Origin: a virus
DNA length: 64,000 nucleotides
Direction: 5' to 3' (one strand)
Virus record (IMG/VR): IMGVR_UViG_3300032282_006516
Location: 57,429 to 121,428 of that record
The notes beneath the pieces were generated by a model. That model was given only the letters and a program-made list of their open reading frames with translations, was not told where the DNA came from and did no database searches. A program made the position numbers and the translations under genes. Every line of letters starts with the position of its first letter. Position 1 is the first letter of the stretch. Of the stretch, positions 16,197-36,772 are shown piece after piece.

Positions 16197-18041
16197 TTAA
16201 CCCTGGTCTACCGGCCCTCGATAGCCCGTACGCAGCGGGCCCTGCCCCGGCATTTCCCGAATCGGGGAGATGATGTCCGGACGCGGAGTAAGAATCATCG
16301 AGACTAGGAAACAGTACAGGATGGAATGAAACGCATCGTCAGGACGGTCCGGACGATGGGTGTACTGAATCATCCGCAACGACTCATTGTACTCACTGAA
16401 GATGTTGAGAATGTCGTTTGCGTACGGGTCTTCAAACTCTTCCCATCGAGGAAAGTCGAGCTGCTTACGCTTCACGGCGTTGAAGAGGTCGCTCATCACC
16501 TCCGTGCGAACCATCTGCCAACGGCGGAACTGTGGGTTCCACTGGAGCTTCTTTTTGCCCCTCGGCATGTACTGATACTTGTGAATGCGCTTGGGGCCGA
16601 ACTTCCGCGTCAGGAAGTCGTTGCGGTCAAAACCGCCGCCGTAGTCGGCCCCGACCAAACGCACATTGAAGTACTGGAGCATCTCGCTGATTTTTGCGAG
16701 CTGCGGCTCTGGGTCGACATCCTCACCGACAAAGCGGTGCACGTAGAAGATGCGGAACTTCTGGTTGATGTACGTGCCCAGGGAGAGAACCGTGTACGTG
16801 TTTTCTCCTGTGCCCCAGTCGATTCCCGCGAAGACAGGCTGACCCGCACCGAGCGAATGGTATGCCTCCAACGCCTTCGGGTGCATCGTCACATCGGGGT
16901 TACAACACTCGCGAACTTGTTGCCGCGTTAGTGGACGAAGACCGGAGTCGTAAGAAACTCCCAGCACCTCGTTGTAGAACTTGGCGCGGTCGTAACGCCC
17001 GTAGTCGAGCATGATTTCATCCCACGACCGCCAGGGCACCATGAGCTGCGGAATCCGGTAGCTCTCAAAAATGCCGCCCTCCTGCATCATCGCCCACTGC
17101 GCATCAGGGTGCATGGGGTTGATGAGGTTGTGACAACGCTCGCAAGAGAGACCGCGCTTTTGAATGTTCTTCTCGCCAAGGACATTCCAGAAACGACCTG
17201 CACCTGCAGAGGAACCGCAGCGGTCACAAGGCACCACCCACTCCCCCATGGTGCTCATCGGACGGCCTTTTGACGTACCGCTGCGGTAATACTCGATGAC
17301 GTTATCGAGACCCTTGGGAGTTCCGGCGTAGATGAACCGGCGCCAGCGTTCCGGCGCGTGGCTCGACGACTGCTCGATAACCGGAATGTTGTCCGCGAGA
17401 ATGTCCTGCAACTCGTCGAGCGCGATGCACCAAGACGGGATACCGCGGGTACGGTCCGCGTTCAGGAAGGCGTAGCGAAGTGTCACCTTCGAGCGGTTGA
17501 CGAACTGCTTTTCGAGAATGTTCTGCTGCAGCAGTGTCGTTGTGTAGGACCGCAAGACCTCACTGGTCTCCAACGGCTCCTTGATGCGGTCCGCCGAGAA
17601 CGTCTTCGTCTGTGTCGCAGACGGCGAGACGTAGAGTGTACGAAAGTCCGGCACCATGCACGAGTACGTGATGATGCGGTTGCCGAGCAGCGTGGACTTC
17701 TCGACCTGGCGACCACAGAAGAGCAGAAGGCGCTTGGCTTCTGTGTCGTAGATGCGCCGCATGTGACGACGCCCTTCAAACGAGAAAGGTTCACGACCCT
17801 GTCCATCCGCTCTCGGCATCCGGAAGGCGAACTCCGTGAACTGCGACGGCAGGATGGCAGGAATCTGAAAAGCAGCTTTGGGCGGCGACCCTGAGAACGA
17901 GAAGTCGCCGAAGGGCTCCGGCTCCGCACACCAAGGATGCCCATACTCGTCGTCGAACAAAGACTCGTCCAAGTCTTCGACGCTCGCATCGGCGTCAAAG
18001 ATTTGCGGGGGACGGGCGTTTGGTAGATACACGGTAGACAT
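16197..18041 (-). CDS. terL: Terminase large subunit (lambda GpA-like)
   Basis: GRQVEKST Walker A, LDELQD Walker B, AGTPK coupling motif, CxxC...CxxC, GIDWG and PDDAFHS nuclease motifs; start is ATG 18041 or TTG 18062. Confidence 0.9.
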   Translation of the reverse strand: MSTVYLPNARPPQIFDADASVEDLDESLFDDEYGHPWCAEPEPFGDFSFSGSPPKAAFQIPAILPSQFTEFAFRMPRADGQGREPFSFEGRRHMRRIYDTEAKRLLLFCGRQVEKSTLLGNRIITYSCMVPDFRTLYVSPSATQTKTFSADRIKEPLETSEVLRSYTTTLLQQNILEKQFVNRSKVTLRYAFLNADRTRGIPSWCIALDELQDILADNIPVIEQSSSHAPERWRRFIYAGTPKGLDNVIEYYRSGTSKGRPMSTMGEWVVPCDRCGSSAGAGRFWNVLGEKNIQKRGLSCERCHNLINPMHPDAQWAMMQEGGIFESYRIPQLMVPWRSWDEIMLDYGRYDRAKFYNEVLGVSYDSGLRPLTRQQVRECCNPDVTMHPKALEAYHSLGAGQPVFAGIDWGTGENTYTVLSLGTYINQKFRIFYVHRFVGEDVDPEPQLAKISEMLQYFNVRLVGADYGGGFDRNDFLTRKFGPKRIHKYQYMPRGKKKLQWNPQFRRWQMVRTEVMSDLFNAVKRKQLDFPRWEEFEDPYANDILNIFSEYNESLRMIQYTHRPDRPDDAFHSILYCFLVSMILTPRPDIISPIREMPGQGPLRTGYRGPVDQG

Positions 18042-18046
18042 CCGAG

Positions 18047-18367
18047 ATGAAACGTACTGCAAGACCCGATGTATTTGTGGGAGAACTTGTCTCTAGTGTG
18101 CAGCGCGCTGGTCCGGTTCTCACGGGCCAAACGACACTACAACCAGAGGCAGAGGGTGACGGATACTGCGGAACAATGCAGCTCGTGCCGAACGCTTTTC
18201 ACGCCAACGACTTAGGGCGGCGGGTCAAAGACGCTTTCGTCACGTTTGTTCGCGCGTACTGCCGTACCCAGGGATGGAGGCTTCGGGAGTTTCGCGTGAA
18301 GAAGAACTACGTCGAGTTCGCCATCGCCGCTTCAAGACCCCGGTCGAGTTCCAGCAAGAACCGCTGA
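18047..18367 (+). CDS. Hypothetical protein (106 aa), isolated on the + strand
   Basis: Fills a gap of about 245 bp between minus-strand genes; plausible globular sequence; overlaps a neighbour. Confidence 0.35.
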   Translation: MKRTARPDVFVGELVSSVQRAGPVLTGQTTLQPEAEGDGYCGTMQLVPNAFHANDLGRRVKDAFVTFVRAYCRTQGWRLREFRVKKNYVEFAIAASRPRSSSSKNR

Positions 18368-22574: not shown

Positions 22575-23809
22575 GCGAGAACCTGTGGGTTCGCCGTGGT
22601 GATGCTACCGACGAGCGGAGCCACCGTAGTCACCGTACAGGCAATCGGTGCGTTCGGAACAGGCGGCGAGGAGAACGTAATCAAGGCCGGGGCGGCGATG
22701 AGGTTCATTGAAACAATGTCCCCCAAACGCGCCACTCCAGACTGCCCCGTCCCAAGGCGCACGATGTCGCCCTTCACGTGCGTGTAGTTTCCACCTGAGA
22801 TGTCGAAACCATTCTTCGCGACGAAGTTGATGGTGTCGTCCGTCTTCAGCGTGATGGCTTCCGTTACTTCGATGTTGAGCTTCTTCTTCACCCGCACGAA
22901 GAAGTTTCCCTCGGTGCGCAACACCGTGTTGCCCTTACGGTCGAACACAAACTTCAGCACGGACGTATCGCCGGTCGAGCTTGAAGCCATGTCACCGTTC
23001 TGCGCGACGAAGCCCTTGGGGCTGACGGTCACCTCGTAGACGATGGGGTTGCTCCCCTGCCCGTCATCTCCTTCGGCAACACCCGCAGCAACGAGAAGTG
23101 CCGGGTCCGGCTCCGGGATGGGGTTGTAGACCTTGCCGACCGCTACACGAATGTCCGCGTACTGGTCGGTCGCGAAAACCCGAAACGTCTGCAGGTACTG
23201 GCTCGGGTACTGGTCGAGAGACGGCCCGTCCTGCAGCCCCCACACAATCGACCCGTTCGAGTTGTGGTGCTCGTAGTTTTCGCTGATGTCCGTCATCAAG
23301 TTCCGAAGCGGGATGAACAGACGCTGCGACAGCTCCGTGGCACCAATCTGAAGAACTCCGCCACGATGAAGAATGACGAAGTTATTGTCCCGCGTGCGCA
23401 GGACAATGTCTCCCGCTTTTACCCGAGGACGATTTCCCGCGAACGACGCATCCGTGGGATGAAGCGGCTGGCTACCGTGAGGACTGGTTCCGGACGGCGC
23501 ATCCGGCGACGAGTCATTTACCGTCTGCACAGGCATGAGGAACGCCATAACAAACGGCGCCGTGCTGTCGGACGGGATGCAGACCATGCACGTCGACCCG
23601 ATTTCAGGCACGACGTAGAGCCCCTCCCCGTTGTTCGGGTTCTGATACGGGGACGCTACCTGGACCTGGAAGTACTTCTTCCGGTCGAACTGCGCCACGA
23701 CGTCGACCGTCCACTTCACCAAGTTCACGCCTACAACGCGCCCCTGGACCACCTCGGCCGGGTCTGCCCCGGCCTTGTGCGTGAACGAGTTCCGGAACTT
23801 GGTCGTCAT
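22571..23809 (-). CDS. Baseplate central spike/hub protein (gpV/Gp5/Gp138-like, 412 aa)
   Basis: N-terminal OB-fold pattern (GRVVGV...VDV...PEIGSTCMV), beta-strand repeats, C-terminal GVARLGD motif. Confidence 0.7.
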   Translation of the reverse strand: MTTKFRNSFTHKAGADPAEVVQGRVVGVNLVKWTVDVVAQFDRKKYFQVQVASPYQNPNNGEGLYVVPEIGSTCMVCIPSDSTAPFVMAFLMPVQTVNDSSPDAPSGTSPHGSQPLHPTDASFAGNRPRVKAGDIVLRTRDNNFVILHRGGVLQIGATELSQRLFIPLRNLMTDISENYEHHNSNGSIVWGLQDGPSLDQYPSQYLQTFRVFATDQYADIRVAVGKVYNPIPEPDPALLVAAGVAEGDDGQGSNPIVYEVTVSPKGFVAQNGDMASSSTGDTSVLKFVFDRKGNTVLRTEGNFFVRVKKKLNIEVTEAITLKTDDTINFVAKNGFDISGGNYTHVKGDIVRLGTGQSGVARLGDIVSMNLIAAPALITFSSPPVPNAPIACTVTTVAPLVGSITTANPQVLA

Positions 23810-23812
23810 GGC

Positions 23813-26800
23813 TCAGTAGTGATGTCCCGGTACATTCTTCAGATGCTCGCGTCCAGGCTGAAGTGATTGCTTCTGCGTCAGGCCAAACTCAGCGCCGAAC
23901 ACAACACCCGGAATGGGGTGCGTACCGTGGATGTGGGAAACCTCGCCAAGAGCAGCCGCATCCGCCAGGGTGGTGCGCAGCCTTTGATGCTGCAACTTCG
24001 CCATCCAGTCCTCTTGCAGCTCTAGTGGCATTACCGAAATACCCTTAAGCACCGGCTTGTGCTCGATGGGCTGAAGCCCCTGCTTAACAAGGTTCTGATT
24101 CATCCGATTCACAACGGACAGCGGACGGTACTCACCGCGAAGAACGCTGTCGTGGTCACCGGGATGCACGATCTCGGTCAGGTTACCCATGGCCTTGATA
24201 ACCGTCTCCACGTGCCGGCGCTTGATGCCTTCCTTCTCATAAAGACCGTAAATCTCGTTCGCCAGATGGTGCTGAACCTTGTCCATCGAACCCGTCGCTT
24301 CGTACAGGCGGTGCGGGTTCAGGATTGTTCGATTCGGGTCCGACAGGTGGTCGCCGGCCTCGACCTTGGCGCCAACCACGGGCGGGTTCCAGTGCGTGTA
24401 CCCCGCCACGGCTTCGGCGTTCGGCAGATTCTGGTGAAGCGGAAGACCGCCAGCGTCCTTACCGACGTGGTGTTTGCGGTTTCCGATAAACACGTCCACG
24501 CCAGTCGTCGTCGGCTCAATCTTGGTGATGGTGCCGCTCGTCATCGCAAGAGACGACTCGTTCGGGAGCTTTTGTGGCAGCGACATGAGCTGCTCAAACC
24601 GTGCGAACGAGTTCAGAATCTTCGAGCCGTGCTGCTCTCCGACGCCGCCGGTGTGGAAGCTCTTGAGCGTGAGCTGGATGGCGCGTTCGCCAACGGCATG
24701 CGCCGAGTGGACACCGATGTTCGTACCGAGGGCATACGGGTGCCCGCCCGAGTCCAAGCCCGAGCACTTCTGGCAGATGCCCTTCTCGCTCTCGCACTTG
24801 AGCGGGGAGCGCACCACGATTTTCGCGTCCTTCTTTGCCGCCCGAATCTTTCCCACAACGTCGGGGGTAAGAAGTGTGCCGGCCGGAAGATGAAGGCTAC
24901 CGTGCGTGAAATCTTGCTGCAGATGCCGGTCATGCACGTCGCGCTCGTTGATGTGTAGCGCGATGCCCTTGTCCGTGCCGCAGTCGTGTTCGTTCACCGT
25001 CAAGTGCATCATGTTGTTCATGAGCAGCTTGGACATGTACCCCGGCTCCTGAACCTCCTGCACCTTCATGACCGAGCCGCGACGAGCGCCGTGCATCTGC
25101 GTCCAGTACCCGCCGACATCAAGCCCTTCGGCGTAGCTCTTGGTGACCGGAGTGGGAATCTTCCGGTCCATCGAGTCTTTGTAAATCATCGGAGCGAGAA
25201 CCATCTGCTTGTACTGGTCCCACCCCGGCTTCACACCGGCCTTGTACATGGTGAAGAGGTTCGTCGGATTCTTCTCCAGCTTGGCCTCGTGCAGCGCACG
25301 CATGTCGCGTTCCGCCTTCTCGTAAACCGTCACGGCCTGGTGATCCTTCTCCGACTGCGACAGCCCCGGTTTGGCGTAAATCGCCGTCACCTTTTTGTGT
25401 GCTTCGTCGAGAGCCTGTGCCCGCGCTTGGCGGTCAGGAGTAAAGTCCTCCAACGACAACGTGTGTGCACCGACCGGAACAAAGACACCCTTTGTTTCGG
25501 TTGCAACGGGTGTCTTACCCACGGTCTTGGTCAAATCAAACGGATGCCCTGCGCTCGCAGACCGAGGGAGAGAGACCGAGCCGAACGCCATGCCGTTGCC
25601 CAGGTCTTTCAGCTGATTGACCGCAGTTCCGTACTCCGGAGTGTGGTCCTTCGCGATACGCGTGAGCAGGTTGTTGAGACCTGACTTGTCGATATGATAG
25701 TCCATCTTGTGCAGCACATCCTGCTGCATCCCGCTCGGCACGGCGCTCGCCATGAGAATACGACCCGCTGTGGTCGGCTTTCCGTTGAGATGCACGATGT
25801 CGTTGACGTGCAGGGTGCCCTTGCGTACCGCCTCAACGGCTTCGCCAGGATGCTTGACGGACTTACCTGAATCCTTCCCAACCAACGACAACTTATAGAG
25901 CCCGAGTGCGCTTTCCAAGGTCGGCTGGTACATGACCTGCCCCGTCGCTTCGCTGAACAGGTTGTTCGACGGAAACATTTTGTGTGCCTCCGCCACAGCC
26001 TCACGCGTGATCGGGACGTACGCGCTCATCGTGTCGCCGTCGAAATCGGCGTTGAAGCCACCCGTGACGAGCGGGTGAATCTTGATGGCGTTGCCTTCGA
26101 CTGGCTTCGGCTTAAACGCCTGGACACTGTACTTGTGCAGCGCCGGGTCGCGCTTGAGCAGCACCGGGCGCTCTTCCATCACCTTATCGAGCGCACGCCA
26201 CACCGCAGGCGTTTGTTTTGAGATGAGCGCAGGACCCTGAAGCTCATTTTGAATAGCACCCATGTCCTTGAGCTTCCTCACGACAAACGGGCGGTACAGG
26301 TCAAGCGCCGCATTCTTGGGCAAGCCCACTTCGTCCAGACCCAATGCCGGCTCAGGGACAATCGTAGACCGCATGGTCATGTCCTGACGCCGGTTAACGA
26401 GTACATCCTGGAAGTAGCCGTTCTTCGGAGAACTACCGGCAACCTGATGCAGCAAGCCCTTGTGCTTGGCGTCGGCGTACGACGTTCCCAAGCCAATAAT
26501 CGCCTTCACACCGTCGTAGTAATCCTGGCGCAGAGATTTCTTGTTCTCGTCCAGGGTGTGCCGGGCCAGAGTCGGATTCTTCAGTTGATCGTTGACCTTG
26601 GCGAAGTCCGAATACAACTGGTTGATGTCCGCGAACTTCAACGCGCCGCTCGGCATCGTCGACACCGGGCGCATGACCGGCGGAATGACCGGGATATTGT
26701 GAAGGATGTAGGCTTCGCTCGGCTTCATGTCGAGATCCTTCAAGGCGCGAAGGTACTTCACCTTCTTGAGCGTCTTGTCGATCTCTTGCGTCTTCGCCGT

Positions 26801-29800
26801 TTGCAGCGCCTTCTCCGCTTTGGGCAGTTCCTTTGCTACGTCGATGCGGTCCAGGAGGAGCTTGATACCGGCACCACCCGTCACCCCGGCCTTAGTGTCC
26901 GTAAGACCGCCATTCGCGGCAACGCCCTTTTCGCCGTGAATGACCGCCGTGAAGTCTTTAGCGGACAGACCCGTTAGATGCCGAATCGGCGCCTCAAACA
27001 AAGGATTCGGAAGCGGCTCGGCAAGCCCAATCCGCGTCCACTGACGACCGCCGTGCCCACCGGTCAGGTGCTCATCGAACAAGCCGCCCGGCTTCGGCAT
27101 GGGGTCGCCGTTCTTGTCCGTCTTCGACAGCAGCAAATCGGCCGGATTAGGCAACTCTTTCTTTGCCAGCTGTTTGATGTGCGCGTCCGTCAGAGGAGAA
27201 AGAACAAGGTCATGCCCCTTCTTCTCGATGTTGATTCCAGACCCTTTCAGCATGTCGGTGAACTTCTGAAAGGCAAATGTCGGCTTGGGCGTCGGTAGAG
27301 GCCCACCCGTTTGAATCGCTGCCCAAATCTTGTCGTGGTCCGAAGGCCAGCGTTTTGCCGGATTCGTTTGTGCGTCCGGGCCTTCCGCCTTGTACGTCTG
27401 CATCTCGCGGATGTTCGCCGTCGCACCGTGCGCCAACAGCGCGTAGAGGCCGAGCGTACCCATCGACTGTCCGCCCGTTCCCGAGCCACTAGCCGGCTGA
27501 AGGTTCAGGTCGTACGTCTCGTGCGCCCCGCCCGGCAAGTTCATACCAGACCGCACCGAGAGCTTCTTCTCAACCTGATGCACGAGCTTGAGGTGGTGCT
27601 GCGGCCCCACCATGACCTTGCCGAGGGGCTGCTTCGTCACCGGGTCGAACAGTTCCTCTGTATCCGTCAAACCGTGCGCTTTGAGGTCCGCGCGCACCTT
27701 TCCCAACGCATCCGTGTTTGGCTCAAAGTTCTTGACGATGTAGGGCTTGCCCGTCTTCTCGACGATTTTCCCCGCAGCAGTTTCAAGCAACTGACCGACG
27801 TTCATACGGCCCGGAACACCCGAAGGGTTGAGCGCAACCTCGATGTGCTTACCGTCTTTCGTGTGCGGCATCTCCTGGTCCGGGAGGATCATCGTGACGA
27901 TGCCCTTGTTGCCGTACCGACCCGCCATCTTGTCGCCGACCTGCATCGGCTCGATGGTCCGTACGTGCACCGCGAGACCGTCCTTGCCCTTATGTACCCC
28001 GACAACCTCTCCGGGGAACTCACTGTCCCAACGAAGGCTCTTGTCCGTGTGCGCTCCGCTCATGCTGCGGCGGATGGCGGCCAAACCAGTGCGGTCTTTG
28101 ATGTTGTACGGCTTCATGGCCGCGATCAAAGGGTCACCCGGATGAACCGTCTGTCCGATTCTCACCACGCCCGAATCGTCGAGCTTTTCCAGCTGTTCCT
28201 TCTTGAATACTCCTGGATGTTCAAGATGAAACTTCTTCTTGTTTAGAACAAGGTCATCATCAAGCGGGATAGCGTTCTTCTGAAGGTGTGCGCTGGAGAG
28301 CTTCTGCGCCGCGCTTTCCGAGATGACGATTCCGTCCTCAAAGTTGTAGCCCTTGAACGGGATGTACGCCGTGCGGAGGTTGGTTCCGAGGGCCAATACG
28401 CCGTTCCGCGCGTAGTTCGTGTCCGCGATAACCTGGCCGCTTGTCACCTTGTCGCCAACCTTGACCAGAGGCGTCGAGTGCAACACGCCCTTGGCATCGT
28501 TGAGCGGGTAGTTGTTGTAGAGCTGCACTTCGTGGTGCTGGCCCTTGGCGTCTTGAAGAACGACCGCGTCTTTCTTCAGTTCAACCACTTTTCCGCTCAC
28601 GGGTGCTTGGTGCGATGCCTGCTTACCGAGCAGCGCCTCGAACGTAGGCGTGCTTTGCATCCCCGTGCCCACCTGCACCAGCGGGGCTTGCCGGTGTACG
28701 AGCGAAATCGCCTGTTCCATCTGGCGGCTCGCCATTGATGCACGACCGCCGCTCGTGTTCCCAAGGAACGGAACGAGGTTCGAGGTCATATTGAAAAGCT
28801 GCCAAGCGTGGGGCATCGCGTACTGCGCATCCGACACCTTGCCGTCACGAATCGCCGTACCGGCGCTCATGCGAACGGTGTCGTGTAGGGGCTTTGGCGT
28901 GCCGCCTTCCCAGCGAATCTGGTCCGGGAGAATGATGTTGGAAGTCGCGAACTTGGTTGGCGACACCATCTCCATCGCATTCGTCTTGAGGTTGTAAAGG
29001 CGAATCTTTGCCTCGTTTCCCTCTTTACGAACCCCAAGCGGCAGCCGCAGCGTCACGCCCGTCTTCGCACCCTCAGGCGTATTGATGGGGTCGAGATACC
29101 CGAGATGGCTCGGGTTGACGAACTTCGCCTCGTCTTCGATGCTGCGCTCGCTCTTAATGCCGCCCGTACCCATGATGGTCGTCTGCATCGCGGACGAGAC
29201 CATTTCGACGGGATTGATTTGCGTAGCAACGCGTGCCGCGCTGTTCTTATGAAACACGTCCCTGACGGGCGTGTTGAACATGTCGAACTTGATGATTTCG
29301 CGAATGTCTTTCGCTCCATCAATTTTACGTGCCGTCTTTGCTCGAACCGTTCGTCCGGCCTCGCGCAGCTTGTCGAAGGCGTAGTCACCCGTCGTACGCA
29401 AGTCCTTGAACACGAGCGAGTCCCGGTCATCTTCGGGATGACCGACGCTGACTTTCAAAAGTTTTTCTGTGGCGAGCTTCAACGTGTCTCCCGTCACATG
29501 AGAGAACGGCTTGCCGAGTGTAATCTCCGTCGCATCCGGACGAAGGTTTGACGCGCCCATGACCTGATGGAAATGCGCTGCCGCTTCTTCTTTGCTCGGT
29601 GCAGCGGTCTTCTTGGAGGTCTTGTAGAACGCCTCCAGGGCCGTGTTGACGCCACGTGCGTTCTTATTGGCGTCGAGGACTTCTTTTCCCCACGCCTTTT
29701 CCAGCTCACCGTCACTAACGCCGAGCGTCTTCAAAAACGGGTACAGCGGCAGCGACGCCTTGCTCGACCCATACTGCATCGAGAAGGTCTTTTTGGCCGG

Positions 29801-30247
29801 GTCGAACACCGTATCAAACGCACGCGCGCCCTTGCCCGTGACGTTGAAGTGGTTCTCCAGCTCACCGTTCGGCCGGCGCCGCGAATAGACACCGGACTTG
29901 AGCTGCCACTGGTTATCGACCTGATACTCCTGCCCATCAAGAATGTAACTGTACCGACTCGTCGTCAGCGGCAGCTCGGCGATGCGCACGCGGCGTTGGT
30001 CCACAGCCGCGCCGGTGTTTTTGTCCTTAAGCGTGAGGTGCGCGTAAACCGGCGCCGCCCATGAGTCACCGGCTACTTTTGCTGCATGTTGCCCGCGAAG
30101 GTCGTCAGGGTGCTTGAGCTTCGACACCTCTAGCTTGTCCAAATGAAGCGTCTGCGTTTTCCCTTCGAGCGGGAAATGCGCACGAATTCCCTCCAAGACA
30201 CGGTCCTGGAGATGCTGGGCGGCTTCGTTGGGGTCGAGGTAGGCCAT
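23813..30247 (-). CDS. rpoBC: DNA-directed RNA polymerase, beta and beta' subunits fused (2144 aa)
   Basis: beta motifs DPINTPEG, GYNFEDG, GDKMAGRYGNKG, LNPSGVPGRMNVGQ, followed in frame by beta' motifs GGLFDE, LKRDPALH, FNADFDGDTM (26033-26053) and QLTLKSFHTGG. Confidence 0.95.
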   Translation of the reverse strand: MAYLDPNEAAQHLQDRVLEGIRAHFPLEGKTQTLHLDKLEVSKLKHPDDLRGQHAAKVAGDSWAAPVYAHLTLKDKNTGAAVDQRRVRIAELPLTTSRYSYILDGQEYQVDNQWQLKSGVYSRRRPNGELENHFNVTGKGARAFDTVFDPAKKTFSMQYGSSKASLPLYPFLKTLGVSDGELEKAWGKEVLDANKNARGVNTALEAFYKTSKKTAAPSKEEAAAHFHQVMGASNLRPDATEITLGKPFSHVTGDTLKLATEKLLKVSVGHPEDDRDSLVFKDLRTTGDYAFDKLREAGRTVRAKTARKIDGAKDIREIIKFDMFNTPVRDVFHKNSAARVATQINPVEMVSSAMQTTIMGTGGIKSERSIEDEAKFVNPSHLGYLDPINTPEGAKTGVTLRLPLGVRKEGNEAKIRLYNLKTNAMEMVSPTKFATSNIILPDQIRWEGGTPKPLHDTVRMSAGTAIRDGKVSDAQYAMPHAWQLFNMTSNLVPFLGNTSGGRASMASRQMEQAISLVHRQAPLVQVGTGMQSTPTFEALLGKQASHQAPVSGKVVELKKDAVVLQDAKGQHHEVQLYNNYPLNDAKGVLHSTPLVKVGDKVTSGQVIADTNYARNGVLALGTNLRTAYIPFKGYNFEDGIVISESAAQKLSSAHLQKNAIPLDDDLVLNKKKFHLEHPGVFKKEQLEKLDDSGVVRIGQTVHPGDPLIAAMKPYNIKDRTGLAAIRRSMSGAHTDKSLRWDSEFPGEVVGVHKGKDGLAVHVRTIEPMQVGDKMAGRYGNKGIVTMILPDQEMPHTKDGKHIEVALNPSGVPGRMNVGQLLETAAGKIVEKTGKPYIVKNFEPNTDALGKVRADLKAHGLTDTEELFDPVTKQPLGKVMVGPQHHLKLVHQVEKKLSVRSGMNLPGGAHETYDLNLQPASGSGTGGQSMGTLGLYALLAHGATANIREMQTYKAEGPDAQTNPAKRWPSDHDKIWAAIQTGGPLPTPKPTFAFQKFTDMLKGSGINIEKKGHDLVLSPLTDAHIKQLAKKELPNPADLLLSKTDKNGDPMPKPGGLFDEHLTGGHGGRQWTRIGLAEPLPNPLFEAPIRHLTGLSAKDFTAVIHGEKGVAANGGLTDTKAGVTGGAGIKLLLDRIDVAKELPKAEKALQTAKTQEIDKTLKKVKYLRALKDLDMKPSEAYILHNIPVIPPVMRPVSTMPSGALKFADINQLYSDFAKVNDQLKNPTLARHTLDENKKSLRQDYYDGVKAIIGLGTSYADAKHKGLLHQVAGSSPKNGYFQDVLVNRRQDMTMRSTIVPEPALGLDEVGLPKNAALDLYRPFVVRKLKDMGAIQNELQGPALISKQTPAVWRALDKVMEERPVLLKRDPALHKYSVQAFKPKPVEGNAIKIHPLVTGGFNADFDGDTMSAYVPITREAVAEAHKMFPSNNLFSEATGQVMYQPTLESALGLYKLSLVGKDSGKSVKHPGEAVEAVRKGTLHVNDIVHLNGKPTTAGRILMASAVPSGMQQDVLHKMDYHIDKSGLNNLLTRIAKDHTPEYGTAVNQLKDLGNGMAFGSVSLPRSASAGHPFDLTKTVGKTPVATETKGVFVPVGAHTLSLEDFTPDRQARAQALDEAHKKVTAIYAKPGLSQSEKDHQAVTVYEKAERDMRALHEAKLEKNPTNLFTMYKAGVKPGWDQYKQMVLAPMIYKDSMDRKIPTPVTKSYAEGLDVGGYWTQMHGARRGSVMKVQEVQEPGYMSKLLMNNMMHLTVNEHDCGTDKGIALHINERDVHDRHLQQDFTHGSLHLPAGTLLTPDVVGKIRAAKKDAKIVVRSPLKCESEKGICQKCSGLDSGGHPYALGTNIGVHSAHAVGERAIQLTLKSFHTGGVGEQHGSKILNSFARFEQLMSLPQKLPNESSLAMTSGTITKIEPTTTGVDVFIGNRKHHVGKDAGGLPLHQNLPNAEAVAGYTHWNPPVVGAKVEAGDHLSDPNRTILNPHRLYEATGSMDKVQHHLANEIYGLYEKEGIKRRHVETVIKAMGNLTEIVHPGDHDSVLRGEYRPLSVVNRMNQNLVKQGLQPIEHKPVLKGISVMPLELQEDWMAKLQHQRLRTTLADAAALGEVSHIHGTHPIPGVVFGAEFGLTQKQSLQPGREHLKNVPGHHY

Positions 30248-30284
30248 GGGCGTTTGCAGCGTACCGCGCCCACTAGAACACGTG

Positions 30285-30311
30285 CAAGGTTCCGCCCAAG
30301 TCGGGGATAAG
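30285..30311 (+). promoter_or_regulatory. Candidate phage promoter CAA-N19-ATAAG (copy 3), divergent from the RNAP gene
   Basis: CAA 30285-87, ATAAG 30307-11. Confidence 0.5.
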
Positions 30312-30350
30312 AACTATGAGGCGCCGCATTTGCGCCTCAAGGAGACGACT

Positions 30351-30452
30351 ATGAGCGAAGAAGAAAACCAAGGAAATCGTTTTCAGGGTGACATCGACGA
30401 CCTCTTCGAATTTGACGCCCCGTTCTTCGACGAAGAACCGGATAGCGAATGA
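30351..30452 (+). CDS. Highly acidic 33-aa peptide
   Basis: AAGGAG RBS; MSEEENQGNRFQGDIDDLFEFDAPFFDEEPDSE; stop overlaps the next ATG. Confidence 0.55.
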   Translation: MSEEENQGNRFQGDIDDLFEFDAPFFDEEPDSE

Positions 30453-30556
30453 AAACATTCTGGTTGTTTTTCGTAGCAGGTGCCTTGAACGGCATTCTGC
30501 TCTGGATTCGAGAACACATGAGCACGAGGAATGATCCTCAACCCGTATCGGGATAG
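30449..30556 (+). CDS. 35-aa single-TM micro-protein
   Basis: ATGA coupling; MKTFWLFFVAGALNGILLWIREHMSTRNDPQPVSG; below the ORF-track cutoff. Confidence 0.45.
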   Translation: MKTFWLFFVAGALNGILLWIREHMSTRNDPQPVSG

Positions 30557-31121
30557 GGTCACGGCACTCCCAGGGACTCGGATACTGGAAGCCCTCACCG
30601 GGGTGGAAGGTGTCCGGGTCCCGGACCCTCAGAACATGTTTCGCATGTGGGAGGTGCAGACGCTGTATCTGCCCATCGCGGGACGCGCGCTCGGAGGAAT
30701 CCGAGCCAAACTGGTTGACCAGAAAGGTTTTGTTACCTTCTGCAATCAAAGGGATTTGGAAGTTCTTCTGGGATTCGGAACACCGGGCAGTTTCTGCCCG
30801 TGGTCCGGAACAAGATACGTGAGTCCCGACGACTCAGAATGGTTTGGGTTCTGCTGCGATGAAGAGGATCTTCGCGACGACTTGTTCGAGCGCGAGATGT
30901 TTCTCCGAGCGCAGACACCAGGCGGAGTGCTCATCTCCGCGCCGGGGTTTGACCTGACGCGGCGCATCCACATCAGCGCCACGTACGACGCGGAGGAAGT
31001 CTTCGTCTTTCTCCAGGACATGGACCCCGAGACGGGCTTCTTCCCGGACACCCGTTTCGAGACGCTCGAAAGGAGGTGGGCACGCTCAGAAAGGGAGCGT
31101 ATTCGATGGGAACGTATTTGA
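30531..31121 (+). CDS. Hypothetical protein (196 aa)
   Basis: ORF in the + strand early cassette. Confidence 0.6.
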   Translation: MILNPYRDRVTALPGTRILEALTGVEGVRVPDPQNMFRMWEVQTLYLPIAGRALGGIRAKLVDQKGFVTFCNQRDLEVLLGFGTPGSFCPWSGTRYVSPDDSEWFGFCCDEEDLRDDLFEREMFLRAQTPGGVLISAPGFDLTRRIHISATYDAEEVFVFLQDMDPETGFFPDTRFETLERRWARSERERIRWERI

Positions 31122-31678
31122 GTGCGCTCGACGAGACACAGCCCAGCGGCCACGTTTGCGCCGACTGCGGAGAGCCGCTGGGTCTCACCGATGAGGTTTG
31201 GATGGTGGGGGTTGCGCAGCCCCACCACCTGAACAACAAGGTGTTCTACTACCCAGTCCTGGACGAGGAAGACGGAGGGTTCATGTTTGAGCCTTTTTTC
31301 TTCTGCTTCGACTGCTGGGAAGGACATTACGCCGCGCTGCGCGAAGAGGTTTCGGATGACTTGCCCGTTGAAGACGCGGCGAGCGCATCGGAATGCCTCT
31401 GCTGCGGCAGCGGAATCCGAGACTGGGAATACGCCGGAGTGTTCACCCTCGGCGAATTCCGCTCTTCGCGTCGATCTCCTAACGGAGTCCGCGGCGCGAA
31501 GTTCGTGGAGATCCAAAAGACGGAGGCGCTCTGCCTCTACTGTCTGGTTCTCATCAACACAGGGCACATCGAGATGTGGGACGACGTCTCGCAATTCGAT
31601 GAGTGCGCTGATTGCATTCAGATGCGCTGCTGGAGATACGGCAGCTGCGACTGTTACTGCCACACCGACCAAGGATAG
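31106..31678 (+). CDS. Multi-CxxC (zinc-binding) hypothetical protein (~190 aa)
   Basis: CADC, CFDC, CLCC, CLYC, CADC..C..CDC..C; RBS AAGGGAG before ATG 31106. Confidence 0.65.
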   Translation: MGTYLSALDETQPSGHVCADCGEPLGLTDEVWMVGVAQPHHLNNKVFYYPVLDEEDGGFMFEPFFFCFDCWEGHYAALREEVSDDLPVEDAASASECLCCGSGIRDWEYAGVFTLGEFRSSRRSPNGVRGAKFVEIQKTEALCLYCLVLINTGHIEMWDDVSQFDECADCIQMRCWRYGSCDCYCHTDQG

Positions 31679-31682
31679 AAAA

Positions 31683-32837
31683 ATGCTCGAAGATGTACTT
31701 TCGGTTGTTCTCCTCACTCCCATGGACGACCCCGCGGATCCCACCTGCCGGTGGGGCGCACCCACGCTCTTCTGGGGTCCACCCGGCATCGGCAAGTCCG
31801 GACGGGTCGAGGCCGCCGGGGCGGCCGTCGACCTGCCCGTCGAGACCCTCTACCTCAGCACTCTCCAGCCCGAGGACCTCTCGGGCATCCCGATGCCGAC
31901 CAAGAAGGGTGAAGTCGAAAACGTCTGCTCGTTGCCCCAGGTCCGGGGCCTCACCGCCGCCGGCAAGGGCATCCTATTCCTAGACGAGCTGACCACGGCG
32001 CGCCCCGCAGTGCAGGGTGCCGGTCTCGGTGTCGTCTACAACAGGGTCGTCGCCGGCAAGCGGCTCCCGGGCCGCGTCCGTGTCATCGCCGCGGCTAACC
32101 CGCCGGAGGAGGCCGCAGGCGGGTGGGGGCTCGCCCCGCCCATGGCAAACCGGCTCCTGCACCTCGACATTACGCCCCCTACCGGCGAAGAGTGGGCGGC
32201 ATGGCTGCTGTCGGGAAGCGAGAAAACGCCTCCCATCGAAGCGGGAGAAAAGAAGGTCATTGAAGGTTGGGGGTCGGCGTGGCCCAAATACCAGGGGCTT
32301 GGCGCCGGTTTTGCCCGGCGTAACGCGAGCGCGCTCTACAAGCTGCCCCCCGAGGGTAGCAAGAACCGGGGAAAGGCATGGCCCAGCCCTCGGTCGTGGG
32401 AGGTGGCGCTCCGCGCCATGGCCACCGCCGAAGCGCTCGGCAAGCGCCCGCTTCAGCTCCGGCTCCTCGCCGCTTCGTGTGGTGAGGCCGTGACCAAGGA
32501 GTGGGCCGAGTGGGTGGCTTACGCCAACCTCCCGGACCCGGAGGACGCACTCAAGAACAACTGGAAGCCGGACCCGCGTCGGCTGGACGTCGCGTTCGCG
32601 GTCTACGGCGCTGCCATCGCCTTCGCGCTGGGCAAGAAAGACAAGAACTACGCAATCATGGCGTGGAAGCTCCTCCAGGGGGGCATCGACGCCGGGCTGC
32701 CGGACCTGGCACTGGCGCCGGCAACGGCGCTCGTTCGCGGCGGATGGGGCACAAAAGACCCCGCGGTGGCGGCGGTGTGCAGGCCCGTCATCGCGTTGTT
32801 CGGCGAGACGGGCCTCGCCAACTTCGTGGGGCGATGA
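31683..32837 (+). CDS. MoxR-like AAA+ ATPase (384 aa; start MLEDVL)
   Basis: GPPGIGKS Walker A, LFLDE Walker B, AAANP, ANRLLH arginine finger, PSPRSW. Confidence 0.85.
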   Translation: MLEDVLSVVLLTPMDDPADPTCRWGAPTLFWGPPGIGKSGRVEAAGAAVDLPVETLYLSTLQPEDLSGIPMPTKKGEVENVCSLPQVRGLTAAGKGILFLDELTTARPAVQGAGLGVVYNRVVAGKRLPGRVRVIAAANPPEEAAGGWGLAPPMANRLLHLDITPPTGEEWAAWLLSGSEKTPPIEAGEKKVIEGWGSAWPKYQGLGAGFARRNASALYKLPPEGSKNRGKAWPSPRSWEVALRAMATAEALGKRPLQLRLLAASCGEAVTKEWAEWVAYANLPDPEDALKNNWKPDPRRLDVAFAVYGAAIAFALGKKDKNYAIMAWKLLQGGIDAGLPDLALAPATALVRGGWGTKDPAVAAVCRPVIALFGETGLANFVGR

Positions 32838-34141
32838 GTCACCATGTGAAGATGGCCTCTGCACGGGCGTACGTCCTGCAGAAGGCGCCGTACTTTTCCA
32901 GCGCGGTCTACGCGCTGGTCCCCAAACCCATGCCGGGAATCAAGACGATGCTCGTGACCAAGCAACTGGTCATGGGCTACGACCCGGCCTGGGCGGAGCG
33001 GGCAACAGTGGAGGAACTCGGCGCCGACATCGCGCATGAGGTCAACCACTTCTTGCGCCACCATTTCGAGCGGGCCGGGAAGTGCGACCCATCGCTGTGG
33101 AACATCGCGGGCGACCTCGCCATCAACCCCAACCTGCGCAACGCGGGTTGGCAGTTGGCGAAGGACGCCATCTTTCCGGAGAGTTTCAACCTTCCGGAGG
33201 GCAAGTCCGCGGAGGAGTATTACCAGCTCCTCCGCAACGCGCAACTGCAACAGCCTCAGTTGCAGGACGCCCCCAAACAGGGCGAAAAGCCGCAACCGCC
33301 GCAACCCGAAGGAGGCCCCGAGGAACAGGACGGCGGAGGGCAACCCATGTCCCCACCACCTCCCGCGGTGCCGAAACCAGGCACCGGTCGGTGCGGTTCC
33401 ATCGGGGGACACAGCGACCCCGAAATCGAAAAAGCACTGGAGAAGGAAGAAGGCCTCGGGCGCGACCCCGCAGAAATGCAGGGCATCGCCCAGAGGACAC
33501 TTCACGACGTCAAAGAGCACGCGGCAAAACACGGCCGCGGGTCGGTTCCGGGAGACCTCCTGGAGCACCTCAAAGCGTTTGAGGAAGTGAGCAAGGTTCA
33601 CTGGAAGGACCTGCTCGCGCACATCATTCGCGACGCAACGGGACGCTTCCAAGCAGGCGGGGATGATTTCTCGCTACGCCGACCATCGAAGCGTTCCTGC
33701 ACACGCGGCTTCTTACGGCCTGGGCTCATCGAGCACCTGCCGGAAGTTGCCATTGTCCGGGACACGTCCGGGAGCATGGGGCAGAAACAACTCGCGGATG
33801 CAACGCGCGAGGCGTACGCCATCATGCAGGCGCTCAGTATCGAGGAGGTCTGGTTCGCCGATGCGGACACCGCCCTCGCGATGCCGTGGCGCCGAGTCGG
33901 CGGACAGTTCTTCAAGACGCTTACCGAAGCCAAGGGACGAGGCGGAACAGACTTCCAGCCCGCAATCGACAGCGCGCTGACACTTCAGCCGCGTCCCAAC
34001 GTGATTGTGTACGTGACCGACGGCGACGGCTCGGTGGCGGAGTTTCCGCCGCCTGATGTCGAAGTCGTCTGGGTCATCGTGCCCAGCTACTACAAGAAGC
34101 CCCCTGCTACGTGGGGGAAAACGGTCTTCGTAGAAGACTAA
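32834..34141 (+). CDS. HExxH metallopeptidase-like + vWA domain protein (DUF2201-like; start MSHHVK)
   Basis: HEVNH; Pro/Gln linker; MIDAS DTSGS, GGTDF, VTDG; ATGA coupling to the AAA gene. Confidence 0.85.
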   Translation: MSHHVKMASARAYVLQKAPYFSSAVYALVPKPMPGIKTMLVTKQLVMGYDPAWAERATVEELGADIAHEVNHFLRHHFERAGKCDPSLWNIAGDLAINPNLRNAGWQLAKDAIFPESFNLPEGKSAEEYYQLLRNAQLQQPQLQDAPKQGEKPQPPQPEGGPEEQDGGGQPMSPPPPAVPKPGTGRCGSIGGHSDPEIEKALEKEEGLGRDPAEMQGIAQRTLHDVKEHAAKHGRGSVPGDLLEHLKAFEEVSKVHWKDLLAHIIRDATGRFQAGGDDFSLRRPSKRSCTRGFLRPGLIEHLPEVAIVRDTSGSMGQKQLADATREAYAIMQALSIEEVWFADADTALAMPWRRVGGQFFKTLTEAKGRGGTDFQPAIDSALTLQPRPNVIVYVTDGDGSVAEFPPPDVEVVWVIVPSYYKKPPATWGKTVFVED

Positions 34142-34148
34142 GAGAGAC

Positions 34149-34170
34149 GGGCGCCTCTTCGGGGGCGCCC
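34149..34170 (+). terminator. GC-rich hairpin with UUCG loop
   Basis: GGGCGCCTC-TTCG-GGGGCGCCC just after the vWA gene. Confidence 0.55.
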
Positions 34171-34726: not shown

Positions 34727-36772
34727 TTACACTGGAGAGTTTGTTCGACGCGGCGCACGCTGCTCAGGCAGTGGACGCATGTCCACACCCGTCTGCTCAC
34801 CCCCTTGAGGCTGCCGAGCCGCCAACATCTGGCGCACAAGGTCAGCAAGCTCTGGACTCTGCAGCTCAAGGTTCTGAAGAGCCTGCTCCTGTTGTTGCGG
34901 AGGGAGAGTGGCAAGCATCTGTGCTTGCGCCATCGCGAGCGAAGGCAGGTCGACGTTCTGGCCCTCACCCATGCGCTGCTGTCCCGTGAGTTGGCTAGAC
35001 ACCTGACTCAAGAAGTCCTGCGGAGACGACGCTGCAGGAGGAAGCTGCGCGGGCGCTTGCGCCGGGGGTTGTTGGGCGGGCTGCACCTGTTGCGGGACAC
35101 CCTGCCCCTGTTCCACCGCTTCTGCGCCCGGCGCCCCACCAGCCGCTTGCTGCTCCGGGCCACCCGGTTCACCCGGAGCCTGCGGAGCCTGCATGGCCTG
35201 CTGCTGCGCCTGCTGCGCCTTGGCTTGGAACTTCATCATAATGAGCTGAGACTCGCCTTGAATCTCGGCCATGGCGAGCTGCTGTTTCTTCGTAGCCGCA
35301 AGGCGCGTGTCCGTCTCACGAATCATGATGTCGTTCTCTTCATCCTGAGACAGGTCGCTGTCCGCCAGAAGCGTCGTATCCGAAACCTTGTTGGCCTGAT
35401 TCAGCTGCAGCAAGTATGCCTTGCGTTGAATGTCATCCGCCATCTTGAACGGCTTGAAACGGATGCTCGCCTCGGGCCAACCAAGATATGCAGACACTTG
35501 CTTCATGATGAACTTCGCAAGCGCCTTGTGCCGCAGGATGTAGCCGAGGAACATGTTCTCCATCATGCGCATGGAGACGTTGGTTCCGGCGTAACTCATG
35601 CCGCCCACCAAGAACTCGCGGGGCACGCCCATGCCGGTCATGATTTGCTCAGACCACTGCTGAATCTCACCCGTCAGCAGCAGTGCCTTGCCGTCCCCGC
35701 CAATCGTCTGGTTGCCGACCGGCAGCGGCAGAATCGGGATGTAGTTGCTGTCGTAGCGCCAACGTGCGATCTCCGCCGCAATCTGGTCGCGCCAGTCCAC
35801 CAAATTGATGGTGGTATATGGGTCACTGGAACCCGAGCCCGCCTGCGGGAATAGAACGCGGAGAGGAACGATGTGCTCCAGGAGAATGGCCTCCTGCGCC
35901 TTCTTCATCACCTGCAGGTAGAAGGTGTCCTTCAAAACCGGCAAGAGCAACGGCGTGCCCCAACCACGGTCCTGCGTCGCCAGCGTAGGCCGACGCATGT
36001 GAAAGAAGTTGTCCTTCGAGAAGATGACACCCTTCTGCTCCCGCATGGCCTGGATGAATACCTGCGGTACACCTTCGACGATGTCTTTCCGGCCAATGAC
36101 AACGTCATTTCGAACTACGGCCGGGATCGTGTAGAAGTAGGTGTAATCACCCGTGATGTCGTTGTAGGTGATTTCAATGTCTTCGGGGTTCCAGCGAATG
36201 GTTTTGATGCCGCTCGCGTTCTTGTAGTAGACGTCCTGCGCCTGCGCGTCTCCAACGTACTGACAACGAGGGCAGGTCAGACGGAACTGGAAGCTCGTGA
36301 AGATCCACTGCGCACGAATCTTCGAGGCCTCGTCCCGGAAATCGCACTGGCTGCAGTAGAGGTACTTCTTGAACGGAAAGCCGAGGCTGACGCAGCCGTT
36401 GCCGTAGGCGTGGTAATCGAGACCGGTTTCGATCTGAAACGCGCGGTAGCGCAAGTGGTCGTGGAAATACTCCATCCACCGATTGCGGACTTCAGGTGAC
36501 TCGTGGTCGATGATGAGATCCGTGACGGGATACTCACTGAGTTTGAAGACCGTCGCGTTGATGAGCGGGTTCGTGAGGAAGTAGTAACGACACCACTTGA
36601 ACAGCTGCTTGACCGTAACGGGCAAGTACGTGTGCGCGACATCAAAGAACGGCGAAGGGTAGTTGACGCCCTGTACCGGCGAACCCTGAATTCGACCCCG
36701 TGTTGACGCGAAGCGCAGACCGGAAGCCGGTCCGCTCGCCACACCCATTCCACCGCCACCAATGAAGCTCAT
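34727..36772 (-). CDS. Portal protein with CxxC..CxxC insert and Gln/Pro/Ala-rich C-terminal extension (681 aa)
   Basis: Portal-like pattern (YFLTNPLINA, DYHAYGNG, RGWGTPLLLP, GMGVPREF) with a coiled/low-complexity tail; co-occurs with terminase and capsid genes. Confidence 0.8.
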   Translation of the reverse strand: MSFIGGGGMGVASGPASGLRFASTRGRIQGSPVQGVNYPSPFFDVAHTYLPVTVKQLFKWCRYYFLTNPLINATVFKLSEYPVTDLIIDHESPEVRNRWMEYFHDHLRYRAFQIETGLDYHAYGNGCVSLGFPFKKYLYCSQCDFRDEASKIRAQWIFTSFQFRLTCPRCQYVGDAQAQDVYYKNASGIKTIRWNPEDIEITYNDITGDYTYFYTIPAVVRNDVVIGRKDIVEGVPQVFIQAMREQKGVIFSKDNFFHMRRPTLATQDRGWGTPLLLPVLKDTFYLQVMKKAQEAILLEHIVPLRVLFPQAGSGSSDPYTTINLVDWRDQIAAEIARWRYDSNYIPILPLPVGNQTIGGDGKALLLTGEIQQWSEQIMTGMGVPREFLVGGMSYAGTNVSMRMMENMFLGYILRHKALAKFIMKQVSAYLGWPEASIRFKPFKMADDIQRKAYLLQLNQANKVSDTTLLADSDLSQDEENDIMIRETDTRLAATKKQQLAMAEIQGESQLIMMKFQAKAQQAQQQAMQAPQAPGEPGGPEQQAAGGAPGAEAVEQGQGVPQQVQPAQQPPAQAPAQLPPAASSPQDFLSQVSSQLTGQQRMGEGQNVDLPSLAMAQAQMLATLPPQQQEQALQNLELQSPELADLVRQMLAARQPQGGEQTGVDMRPLPEQRAPRRTNSPV

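Follow-up and report, generated by a model that had tools for sequence, protein, structure and literature searches.

This study analyzed a 64,000-nucleotide stretch of phage DNA, hereafter the window, which is the final 64 kb of the 121,428-base IMG/VR record IMGVR_UViG_3300032282_006516, and focused on a gene that encodes a fused beta-beta' RNA polymerase (protein P0001). The record has a guanine-cytosine (GC) content of 60% and a CheckV completeness of 65%, and it belongs to an uncultured phage with a genome of about 190 kb. The polymerase gene and the features around it are listed in Table 1.

The open reading frame (ORF) of P0001 starts with ATG and encodes 2144 amino acids (aa) plus a stop codon, and the ORF list and translation revealed zero internal stops. 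The Pfam beta domains (Rpb2_3, residues 340-402; Rpb2_6, residues 562-900, E 5e-61) are followed by the beta' domains (Rpb1_1, 1143-1227; Rpb1_2, 1286-1424; Rpb1_5, 1708-2032), and the matches to Rpb1_2 and Rpb1_5 exceed the Pfam cut-off. The top NCBIfam models were NF007172 (482 bits, cut-off 5372) and NF011417 (458 bits, cut-off 4632). A Logan contig of run X1 corresponded to window positions 23700-29814 with one substitution and no insertion or deletion, bridging the junction of the two halves near 27217. This re-assembly is not fully independent because X1 may be the source sample of the record. Each genome, in this record and among its relatives, carries one polymerase. A first-pass annotation made from the sequence alone had described a single uninterrupted frame of 2144 aa with beta motifs followed by beta' motifs; the ORF, the order of the Pfam domains, and the junction-spanning contig bear this out, and no stop separates the halves. 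On this evidence, P0001 is a phage-encoded, intact, and streamlined single-chain beta-beta' polymerase of the bacterial type.

Table 1. Features of the polymerase gene, its product, and its surroundings (window positions unless stated otherwise).
Feature	Position	Strand	Basis
Fused beta-beta' RNA polymerase gene (P0001)	23813..30247	-	ORF, translation, Pfam/NCBIfam domains, >100 full-length homologues
Beta moiety, residues 1-1010 (= E. coli beta about 29-1340)	27218..30247	-	BLASTP and MAFFT
Beta' moiety, residues 1011-2144 (= E. coli beta' from about residue 17)	23816..27217	-	BLASTP and MAFFT
Seamless beta/beta' junction, residues 1005-1014, GINIEKK/GHD	27206..27235	-	Alignment to E. coli and Staphylococcus
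Beta active-site motif GRYGNKG, residues 776-782	27902..27922	-	Alignment
Catalytic motif NADFDGD, residues 1399-1405	26033..26053	-	Alignment
Second beta' zinc site (retained), C1756/C1818/C1825/C1828	24764..24982	-	Alignment, family conservation
Beta' clamp helices, residues 1210-1242 (= E. coli beta' 264-300)	26522..26620	-	Alignment; predicted sigma docking site
Site of deleted beta' zinc ribbon, residues 1062-1067, TGGHGG	27047..27064	-	Alignment
Candidate sigma-70-like promoter of the polymerase gene, TTGCAC-N18-TACGCT	30258..30287	-	Unique in window, 0.09 expected
Candidate divergent promoter CAA-N19-ATAAG (GCAA-N15-CGGGATAAG)	30285..30311	+	Upstream of polymerase gene, pointing away
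Further CAA-N19-ATAAG copies	15061-15087, 15937-15963, 34177-34203, 45053-45079	+	Pattern match
CAA-N19-ATAAG variants	40198-40224 (+), 61738-61764 (-)		Pattern match
VgrG/gpV-like central tail spike gene, 412 aa	22571..23809	-	3 nucleotides after polymerase stop; conserved downstream in 24 relatives
Portal gene, upstream	34727..36772	-	tblastn with Arash gp204, E 2e-84
Large terminase gene, downstream	16197..18062	-	phrog_675, E 6e-51; Arash gp1, E 8e-40
Sigma-70-family gene, 265 aa (P0274)	7943-8737 of the record (G000), about 49 kb before the window	-	Arash gp10 homology, Sigma70_r3

Anatomy of the fused chain

Residues of P0001 were mapped by BLASTP and MAFFT against the Escherichia coli and Staphylococcus beta and beta' subunits. 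The two moieties are joined without a linker: the C-terminal beta motif GINIE is followed by three residues and then by the first conserved beta' strand, and the alignment revealed that this junction is kept in 58 family members. Both double-psi barrels are retained. The lysine motif of the beta barrel, GDKMAGRYGNKG, occupies residues 771-782, and G771, D772, K773, R777, and K781 are invariant among 28 sequences, as are A1400, D1401, D1403, G1404, and D1405 of the catalytic NADFDGD motif. The intact NADFDGD and the GRYGNKG variant reported in the first-pass annotation were thus recovered at their expected places in the alignment; the Tyr/His position of the latter differs among family members. 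The bridge helix (residues 1712-1747, HGARRG) and the trigger loop (QLTLKSFHTGG, without SI3) are also retained, and the four cysteines of the second beta' zinc site correspond to C814, C888, C895, and C898 of E. coli beta'.

The alignment revealed that E. coli beta plus beta' together exceed P0001 by about 600 aa, in agreement with the earlier estimate of several hundred residues. The beta half is without E. coli beta residues 3-28, 225-306, 321-359 (SI1), 938-1049 (SI2), and 1125-1178, and the beta' half is without E. coli beta' residues 64-95 and 945-1130 (SI3) plus a few segments of 10-16 residues. About 470 aa of this deficit are E. coli insertions that are mostly or wholly missing in Staphylococcus too (beta 225-306, 321-359, 938-1049, and 1125-1178; beta' 945-1130). 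Most of the 600-residue deficit is of this kind; the real loss in P0001 is that of the four-Cys zinc ribbon (E. coli beta' 64-95), which Staphylococcus has and in place of which P0001 carries TG-GHGG. The zinc finger that had been reported as not evident at the beta' N terminus is therefore deleted, and the deletion is family-wide: at least three Cys within the 45 residues after the GGxFD motif were found in none of the 214 family members that have this motif. P0001 further carries three small insertions of its own (residues 962-972, 1557-1592, and 1934-1953), and its beta flap tip is four residues shorter and divergent. By alignment, the ORF encodes the complete and compact catalytic core of a bacterial-type multisubunit polymerase in one chain, and the enzyme is a near-minimal bacterial core.

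Rifampicin-resistance mutations are well established in the rifampicin pocket of bacterial beta. Relative to E. coli, P0001 carries Q513R, D516T, H526S, and S531T (E. coli numbering), and these changes at the four main resistance positions predict that the polymerase is insensitive to rifampicin.

Relatives, phylogeny, and host

The close homologues of P0001 comprised 119 proteins with 57-74% identity, and 108 of them are 2000-2250 aa long; ten exceed 2400 aa, and those listed carry a LAGLIDADG intein domain. IMG/VR yielded 75 distinct loci, the least similar at about 30% identity; their contigs reach 224 kb, and almost every locus has a single ORF of 2060-2200 aa. The beta' half was also searched against 1.84 billion cluster representatives (50% identity). 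The best 150 representatives all had E<1e-144, and 108 of these 150 were at least 2000 aa long. In the single-ORF representatives of about 2000-2200 aa, the beta' match starts near residue 1060-1150; these representatives are therefore fused. Judged by protein length and match position, the number of clusters (50% identity) that share this layout with proteins of at least 2000 aa is 108 or more. Because at least 108 such clusters have full-length size, the clade is a sizeable, unnamed part of the phage world and not a curiosity. It is very large and old, and its members are contractile-tailed phages with genomes of about 165-200 kb.

Separate maximum-likelihood trees (unrooted, quick search, without mReC sequences) were constructed for each half, with 28 rows for beta' and 26 for beta. 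The bacteria in these trees were a small sample consisting of E. coli, Acinetobacter, Staphylococcus, a faecal contig, and the chromosomal rpoB/rpoC of two Myxococcota metagenome-assembled genomes (MAGs). The fused proteins and four split relatives formed one clade, with Shimodaira-Hasegawa-like approximate likelihood ratio test (SH-aLRT) support of 100 in the beta' tree and 95 in the beta tree; the polymerases of Salmonella phage Arash (Gp206 plus Gp216; OQ632216) and of the Vibrio phages D69, D148, and D181 (OZ195729 and others) belong to this clade in both trees. The sampled bacteria, including the rpoB/rpoC of the Myxococcota MAGs themselves, formed a separate clade with a support of 100. 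Terminal branches within the phage clade measure about 1 substitution/site, exceeding the distances between the sampled bacterial phyla. The split forms constituted one subclade (92) among the fused lineages, nested with a support of 88 in the beta' tree and with an unresolved position in the beta tree. Because the split subclade lies among fused lineages in these unrooted trees, the fusion is probably ancestral in the clade and the fission secondary.

These trees bear on the alternative that P0001 is a recently captured cellular rpoB-rpoC operon, or else a misassembled or frame-shifted gene pair. P0001 is readily alignable to bacterial beta and beta', its beta' catalytic segment is 33-36% identical to bacterial sequences and equally close to Arash, and cellular beta-beta' fusions exist, with NF007172 and NF011417 being the top NCBIfam models. 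However, the NCBIfam scores are far under every curated cut-off (482 versus 5372 bits for the best model), a frame of 2100-2200 aa recurs across contigs numbering in the hundreds, at identities as low as about 33%, and the re-assembled contig crosses the junction without an insertion or deletion. Moreover, both halves fall in a phage-only clade that long, fully supported branches separate from the sampled bacteria, among which the rpoB/rpoC of the MAG hosts are found; neither half nests in a bacterial clade, and the missing zinc ribbon leaves the chain short of full bacterial domain content. Since both half-trees set the phage clade apart from bacteria, recent capture is excluded for the sampled lineages, and we consider capture or misassembly of P0001 to be extremely improbable.

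The gene is also a hot spot for mobile elements. Many homologues of 2500-4700 aa carry LAGLIDADG intein domains (PF14528); the observation concerns the homologues P0013, P0028, P0048, P0051, P0060, P0073, and P0077 and the loci L038, L046-L048, L050, L058, L061, and L070. In the representative search, matches were interrupted in the neighbourhood of three places: the catalytic NADFDGD, residues 1555-1597, and the trigger loop.

Regarding the host, relatives were binned in two Myxococcota MAGs (L084 and L085), and a search of 401 Myxococcota genomes found only these two MAG copies. The cultured Pendulispora rubella has a polymerase homologue with 61% identity (P0097 = LVJ94_35230) and a sigma homologue (P0380 = LVJ94_35385), the locus tags of which are 155 apart on one 13.6-Mb chromosome; this suggests that it carries an integrated or co-assembled phage of the fused-polymerase clade. 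The GC content of the record fits myxobacterial hosts. This host evidence is weak and suggests a myxobacterial host range.

Phage sigma factor

According to the first-pass annotation, the window contains no alpha, omega, or sigma gene. This is correct for the window, but a sigma-70-family gene lies elsewhere in the same record (Table 1). Its product shares 37% identity with Arash gp10 and matched Sigma70_r3 with 50 bits (cut-off 25.3); the Sigma70_r2 profile (PF04542) missed it in this record. Weak matches to SigB/F/G models extended over nearly its whole length, and those to FliA/WhiG models covered its N-terminal part. The protein has regions sigma-2, sigma-3, and sigma-4 and is closest to the FliA/SigB group. 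Its AlphaFold model had a predicted local distance difference test (pLDDT) score of 82.8, and the top Foldseek matches in the PDB were SigD, SigA, SigB, and sigma-S (probability 1.0). The gene is present in three of four near-complete relatives, and 143 sigma homologues were identified, many on contigs sized like the polymerase contigs.

We modelled polymerase residues 1010-1500 in complex with the phage sigma. The complex scored 0.71, versus 0.01 for the best of three controls; of 80 solved complexes, 58 reach the mark used for this score, as do 2 of 110 mismatched pairs. Agreement between runs was no less than 31% of contacts, and the pLDDT of the partner did not fall below 66. The predicted interface joins the clamp helices to sigma residues 34-77, so that sigma region 2 is predicted to dock on the beta' clamp helices of the polymerase. 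Because sigma-core complexes are among the solved structures, this pass indicates likeness, with the canonical interface preserved, and is not proof of binding.

Two further observations concern sigma proteins. The N-terminus of the phage sigma (residues 1-14) contains a conserved NPxxxYxxxKxAA segment ending in K-x-A(A/S), a putative head-protease motif; the segment may be a capsid-targeting or processing signal by which sigma would take the polymerase into the head. In complete relatives, a second, small sigma is encoded, which is 185 aa long and ECF-like with Sigma70_r2 and r4 in one genome (G403; L099:515-1069, plus strand) and 159 aa long with r4 in another (G405; L100:606-1082, plus strand). 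No homologue of this second sigma was seen in the 65%-complete record of the window. Its presence hints at a sigma cascade for temporal classes.

Promoters

The pattern CAA-N19-ATAAG matched the window five times against 0.36 expected, and none of 100 shuffles reached five. With A/C/T-AA variants, the record contains 15 matches, six of them in its 23.1-29.8 kb stretch. The enrichment was found only for the bipartite pattern, as GATAAG alone was not enriched (29 sites versus 32.5 expected). The ATAAG element of the first-pass annotation is the -10 part of a bipartite sigma-type promoter. The copy upstream of the polymerase gene has a counterpart in about 23 relatives, located and oriented in the same way; some of their polymerases are only 40-41% identical. 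The pooled consensus was GCAAg-N14-cCGGgATAAGaa; when it is read as GCAA-N15-CGGGATAA, its geometry is that of sigma-28/SigD promoters (TAAA-N15-GCCGATAA), which fits the closest families of the phage sigma.

A different element, the sigma-70-like TTGCAC-N18-TACGCT, is a candidate promoter of the polymerase operon. It is found with the same spacing upstream of the polymerase gene in seven relatives (L008, L009, L012, L022, L027, L057, and L060), and its -35 overlaps the -35 of the divergent ATAAG promoter. A scan with the generic sigma-70 consensus around the polymerase gene was uninformative (one site versus 2.2 expected).

The sigma gene and the promoter geometry bear on the first-pass proposal that the fused core is sigma-independent, in which case the phage sigma would redirect the host polymerase. 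Many phages encode sigmas for the host core, and in P0001 the zinc ribbon is lost and the part of beta that binds sigma region 4, the flap tip, is divergent and shorter by four residues. The phage polymerases of the phiKZ/AR9 and crAss types, moreover, work without sigma (PMC7598289, PMC7824862). However, the sigma gene accompanies the fused polymerase not only in this record but also in Arash, the Pendulispora element, and three complete relatives; the clamp helices are kept, and the complex score exceeded its controls at the canonical interface, subject to the likeness caveat above; and the promoter is bipartite with sigma-type geometry. With a conserved sigma-70-family protein encoded in the genome, docking on the clamp helices predicted, and sigma-type promoters present, sigma independence is unsupported, and we regard it as improbable. 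Instead, the fused core and the phage sigma probably work as a holoenzyme that reads GCAA-N15-CGGGATAAG promoters, which would sit before small early-type and replication genes.

Further features were observed around the ATAAG promoters. A conserved TGa.GG lies 8-14 nucleotides 3' of ATAAG in the record and its relatives (ATAAGaa...TGa.gg) and could be a start-site region or part of a ribosome-binding site. Outside the window, six tandem GCAA-N15-CGGGATAAG copies occur within 7 kb (positions 23094-29849 of the record; L006:3094-9849), each before a short ORF, and this stretch looks like an early host-takeover region. Within the window, a very acidic ORF of 33 codons with a good ribosome-binding site (30352-30453, plus strand) starts 41 nucleotides after the divergent ATAAG promoter, and the 30350-34700 region appears to contain small plus-strand genes rather than the minus-strand ORFs that were listed mechanically.

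Alpha, omega, and other polymerase partners

At E≤1, searches for alpha (PF01193, PF01000) and omega (PF01192) gave no match, either in this record or in four relatives with a completeness of 91-100%; two of these relatives have terminal repeats. The control searches were positive in 14 of 14 genomes. A T7-like polymerase (PF00940) was not matched either, but the control genomes also gave no match to this model. Independence from alpha, as suggested in the first-pass annotation, and from omega is therefore plausible; a host alpha may nevertheless be used.

The fused core might indeed still need an alpha dimer, and possibly omega, borrowed from the host. The beta and beta' regions alignable to bacteria are largely retained, and the fused enzymes of cells such as Helicobacter still use alpha, which counts for this alternative. 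Against it, the hosts are very different (Salmonella, Vibrio, and probably Myxococcota), and borrowing would demand compatibility with many alphas; the lack of a detected phage alpha or omega is not direct evidence against borrowing. We consider a borrowed alpha to be conceivable but doubtful. The reading that we prefer is that the beta-beta' tether replaces the alpha-dimer assembly platform and that neither alpha nor omega is needed, a step for which we see the chances as evenly balanced.

Virion context

The polymerase gene lies between the portal and terminase genes, and its nearest downstream neighbour is the tail spike gene. The AlphaFold model of the spike had a pLDDT of 70, and the top Foldseek matches were contractile-injection spikes, VgrG, and the R2 pyocin spike (probability 1.0). 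This 412-aa gene had been considered as a hidden alpha-like or accessory subunit; that assignment was rejected, because the product is a VgrG/gpV-like spike and is unrelated to the Arash helicase Gp217. Capsid genes are located downstream of the polymerase on the same strand, and the major capsid protein matched only phrog_2522. Other phage genes encode a DnaB-type helicase, a primase, a family A DNA polymerase, a UvsX-like recombinase, and a Cas4-like nuclease. The sigma gene lies among homologues of structural genes, as it does in Arash. In the particle proteomics of Arash, Gp206 yielded the most spectra, more than the major capsid protein; further proteins identified were Gp216, the sigma factor Gp10, and the SNF2 helicase Gp217 (PMC10585845).

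On the basis of this gene order, the polymerase gene may head a virion operon (portal ... polymerase, tail spike ... terminase), for which the odds are slightly better than balanced at most. Because the polymerase lies in this operon and the sigma gene among structural genes, the polymerase and sigma would be made late and packaged; after injection, phage transcription would start without the host enzyme. Virion packaging of the polymerase is thus plausible, at about even odds.

Overall interpretation

The best overall explanation, to which we assign a probability of about 0.6, combines these steps: a fused core that acts with the phage sigma, that is held together by its tether, and that travels in the particle. 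Several points weigh against this explanation. The record of the window is only 65% complete, and a Pfam miss leaves room for a divergent alpha or omega analogue or a recruited host alpha. The phage sigmas gp55 of T4 and gp28 of SPO1 reportedly serve the host core, and the phage sigma could do likewise. The polymerase gene has a sigma-70-like candidate promoter of its own; the host enzyme could read it early, and packaging would therefore be unnecessary. The polymerase carries neither an extension at its N terminus nor a tag recognisable as capsid-targeting. It shows no enrichment of the K-x-A(A/S) head-protease motif (three sites versus 2.2 expected), and because the motif is neither enriched nor clearly depleted, it provides no packaging signal. 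Finally, a sucrose gradient was the sole purification of the Arash particles. Of 272 proteins, 116 were found in them, ribonucleotide reductases and RNA ligases among these, and carry-over of abundant proteins is conceded by the authors (PMC10585845).

Some of these points favor a polymerase that is not part of the virion. The host RNA polymerase would read the sigma-70-like promoter early, nothing would be packaged, and the single-chain enzyme with the phage sigma would then transcribe the ATAAG-class (middle) genes and perhaps the late genes. The conservation of TTGCAC-N18-TACGCT directly upstream at equal spacing in seven relatives, the missing capsid-targeting extension, and the low stringency of the Arash particle preparation are consistent with this alternative. 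The tail spike gene only 3 nucleotides downstream, the place of the polymerase gene between portal and terminase, the sigma gene among structural genes as in Arash, and the spectra of Arash Gp206, which outnumber those of the major capsid protein, argue against it, and we judge it to be rather unlikely.

The most far-reaching form of the packaged-holoenzyme explanation is that the capsid carries a self-sufficient minimal holoenzyme, consisting of one 2144-residue chain and one sigma without alpha, omega, or zinc ribbon, which is injected with the DNA and reads sigma-28-like promoters. We advance this form tentatively, as something that may well not hold in full. If true, it would be the simplest known sigma-dependent polymerase of the multisubunit type and the first virion-delivered enzyme of the bacterial type. 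With this lineage, two old questions become testable: whether a covalent beta-beta' tether can replace the alpha-dimer platform and omega, and what the beta' zinc ribbon is needed for. Experiments are possible now because members of the clade are cultured (Arash and Vibrio D69). A two-gene, sigma-programmable, and probably rifampicin-insensitive polymerase could also serve as an orthogonal expression tool.

Comparison with known systems

The nearest described enzymes are those of Arash and the Vibrio phages. These phages resemble the present one in the portal gene that lies upstream and in genome size (about 180-190 kb), and Arash also has the homologous sigma. Arash Gp206 comprises beta plus about the first 500 residues of beta'; in the alignment, its residues 26-1014 pair with the beta half of P0001 and its residues 1018-1519 with the beta' half. 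The seamless junction of P0001 is present in Gp206, and the Vibrio phages keep it too. However, the Arash and Vibrio polymerases are only 32-34% identical to P0001, and their beta' is cut after the catalytic barrel with the last third encoded by a separate gene, whereas the chain of P0001 is continuous. The beta' pieces are 0.6-4.7 kb apart with extra genes between them, and homing endonucleases lie in the gap in D148 and D181. The split point coincides with the border that separates matches to the cyanobacterial rpoC1 model from those to the rpoC2 model and is near the cyanobacterial/archaeal split point. The Arash paper labels Gp206 as the beta subunit, with the fusion unmentioned (PMC10585845). 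In the Arash record (L003), gp206 is likewise mislabelled as beta only, and gp217, which adjoins the beta' C-terminal gene gp216, is an SNF2-type helicase.

The mReC lineage (multisubunit-RNAP-encoding Caudovirales) also consists of uncultured tailed phages with beta and beta' that match the cellular COG0085 and COG0086 and branch outside the cellular clades (PMC7481178). As a label for the present phage it is not right: in contrast to the one gene found here, the mReC table entries consulted have two genes, one for beta and one for beta', with lengths of about 900-1500 aa, and the compositions seen there are low in GC; the paper mentions fusion only for crAssphage (PMC7481178). Other marks of mReC are a gp23-type capsid (PF07068) and a PF03237 terminase; the matches in the present phage were to phrog_2522 for the capsid protein and to phrog_675 for the terminase.

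The crAss-like gp66, YonO, and the tape-measure-fused polymerase of P23-45 share with P0001 a two-barrel enzyme in a single phage polypeptide. However, they are too divergent for COG and Pfam models and have no sigma, whereas P0001 matches five Pfam domains and is accompanied by a sigma. The crAss-like polymerase is reportedly delivered with the virion. Delivery with the virion is also described for the P23-45 polymerase (PMC10770324). The phiKZ and AR9 polymerases are likewise phage-encoded and without alpha or omega, and one of their sets is packaged (PMC7598289, PMC7824862); their beta and beta' are distributed over four or five polypeptides, with two sets per genome and no sigma, in contrast to the one chain, one set, and sigma observed here.

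The cellular beta-beta' fusions of the Helicobacter/Wolbachia type (NF007172, NF011417) have the same order and head-to-tail join, but their models span 2840-2890 positions with full bacterial domain content, whereas P0001 is phage-borne and without the zinc ribbon. The Cobetia phage Carin-5 and YerA41-like phages are cultured and have bacterial-type beta and beta' plus a sigma gene (a sigma, beta', beta cluster); unlike in the present phage, the polymerase genes are separate, and they fall on a terminal branch of >3 substitutions/site outside the fused clade in both trees. In the Carin-5 record (L094), the label beta is given to each of the two genes, but the first one encodes beta'.

A fused phage polymerase of the bacterial type with a sigma was not found described in the literature searched. 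Phage relatives of the cellular polymerase are known in two forms, a fragmented, sigma-less form (phiKZ, AR9) and a single-chain form that cannot be aligned (crAss, YonO). The fused lineage represents a third form, a single chain that can be aligned residue by residue, that keeps the sigma docking site, and that has its own sigma and promoters. By these alignments and its gene content, the single-chain, cell-alignable, and sigma-accompanied form is a new variety of phage multisubunit-type polymerase.

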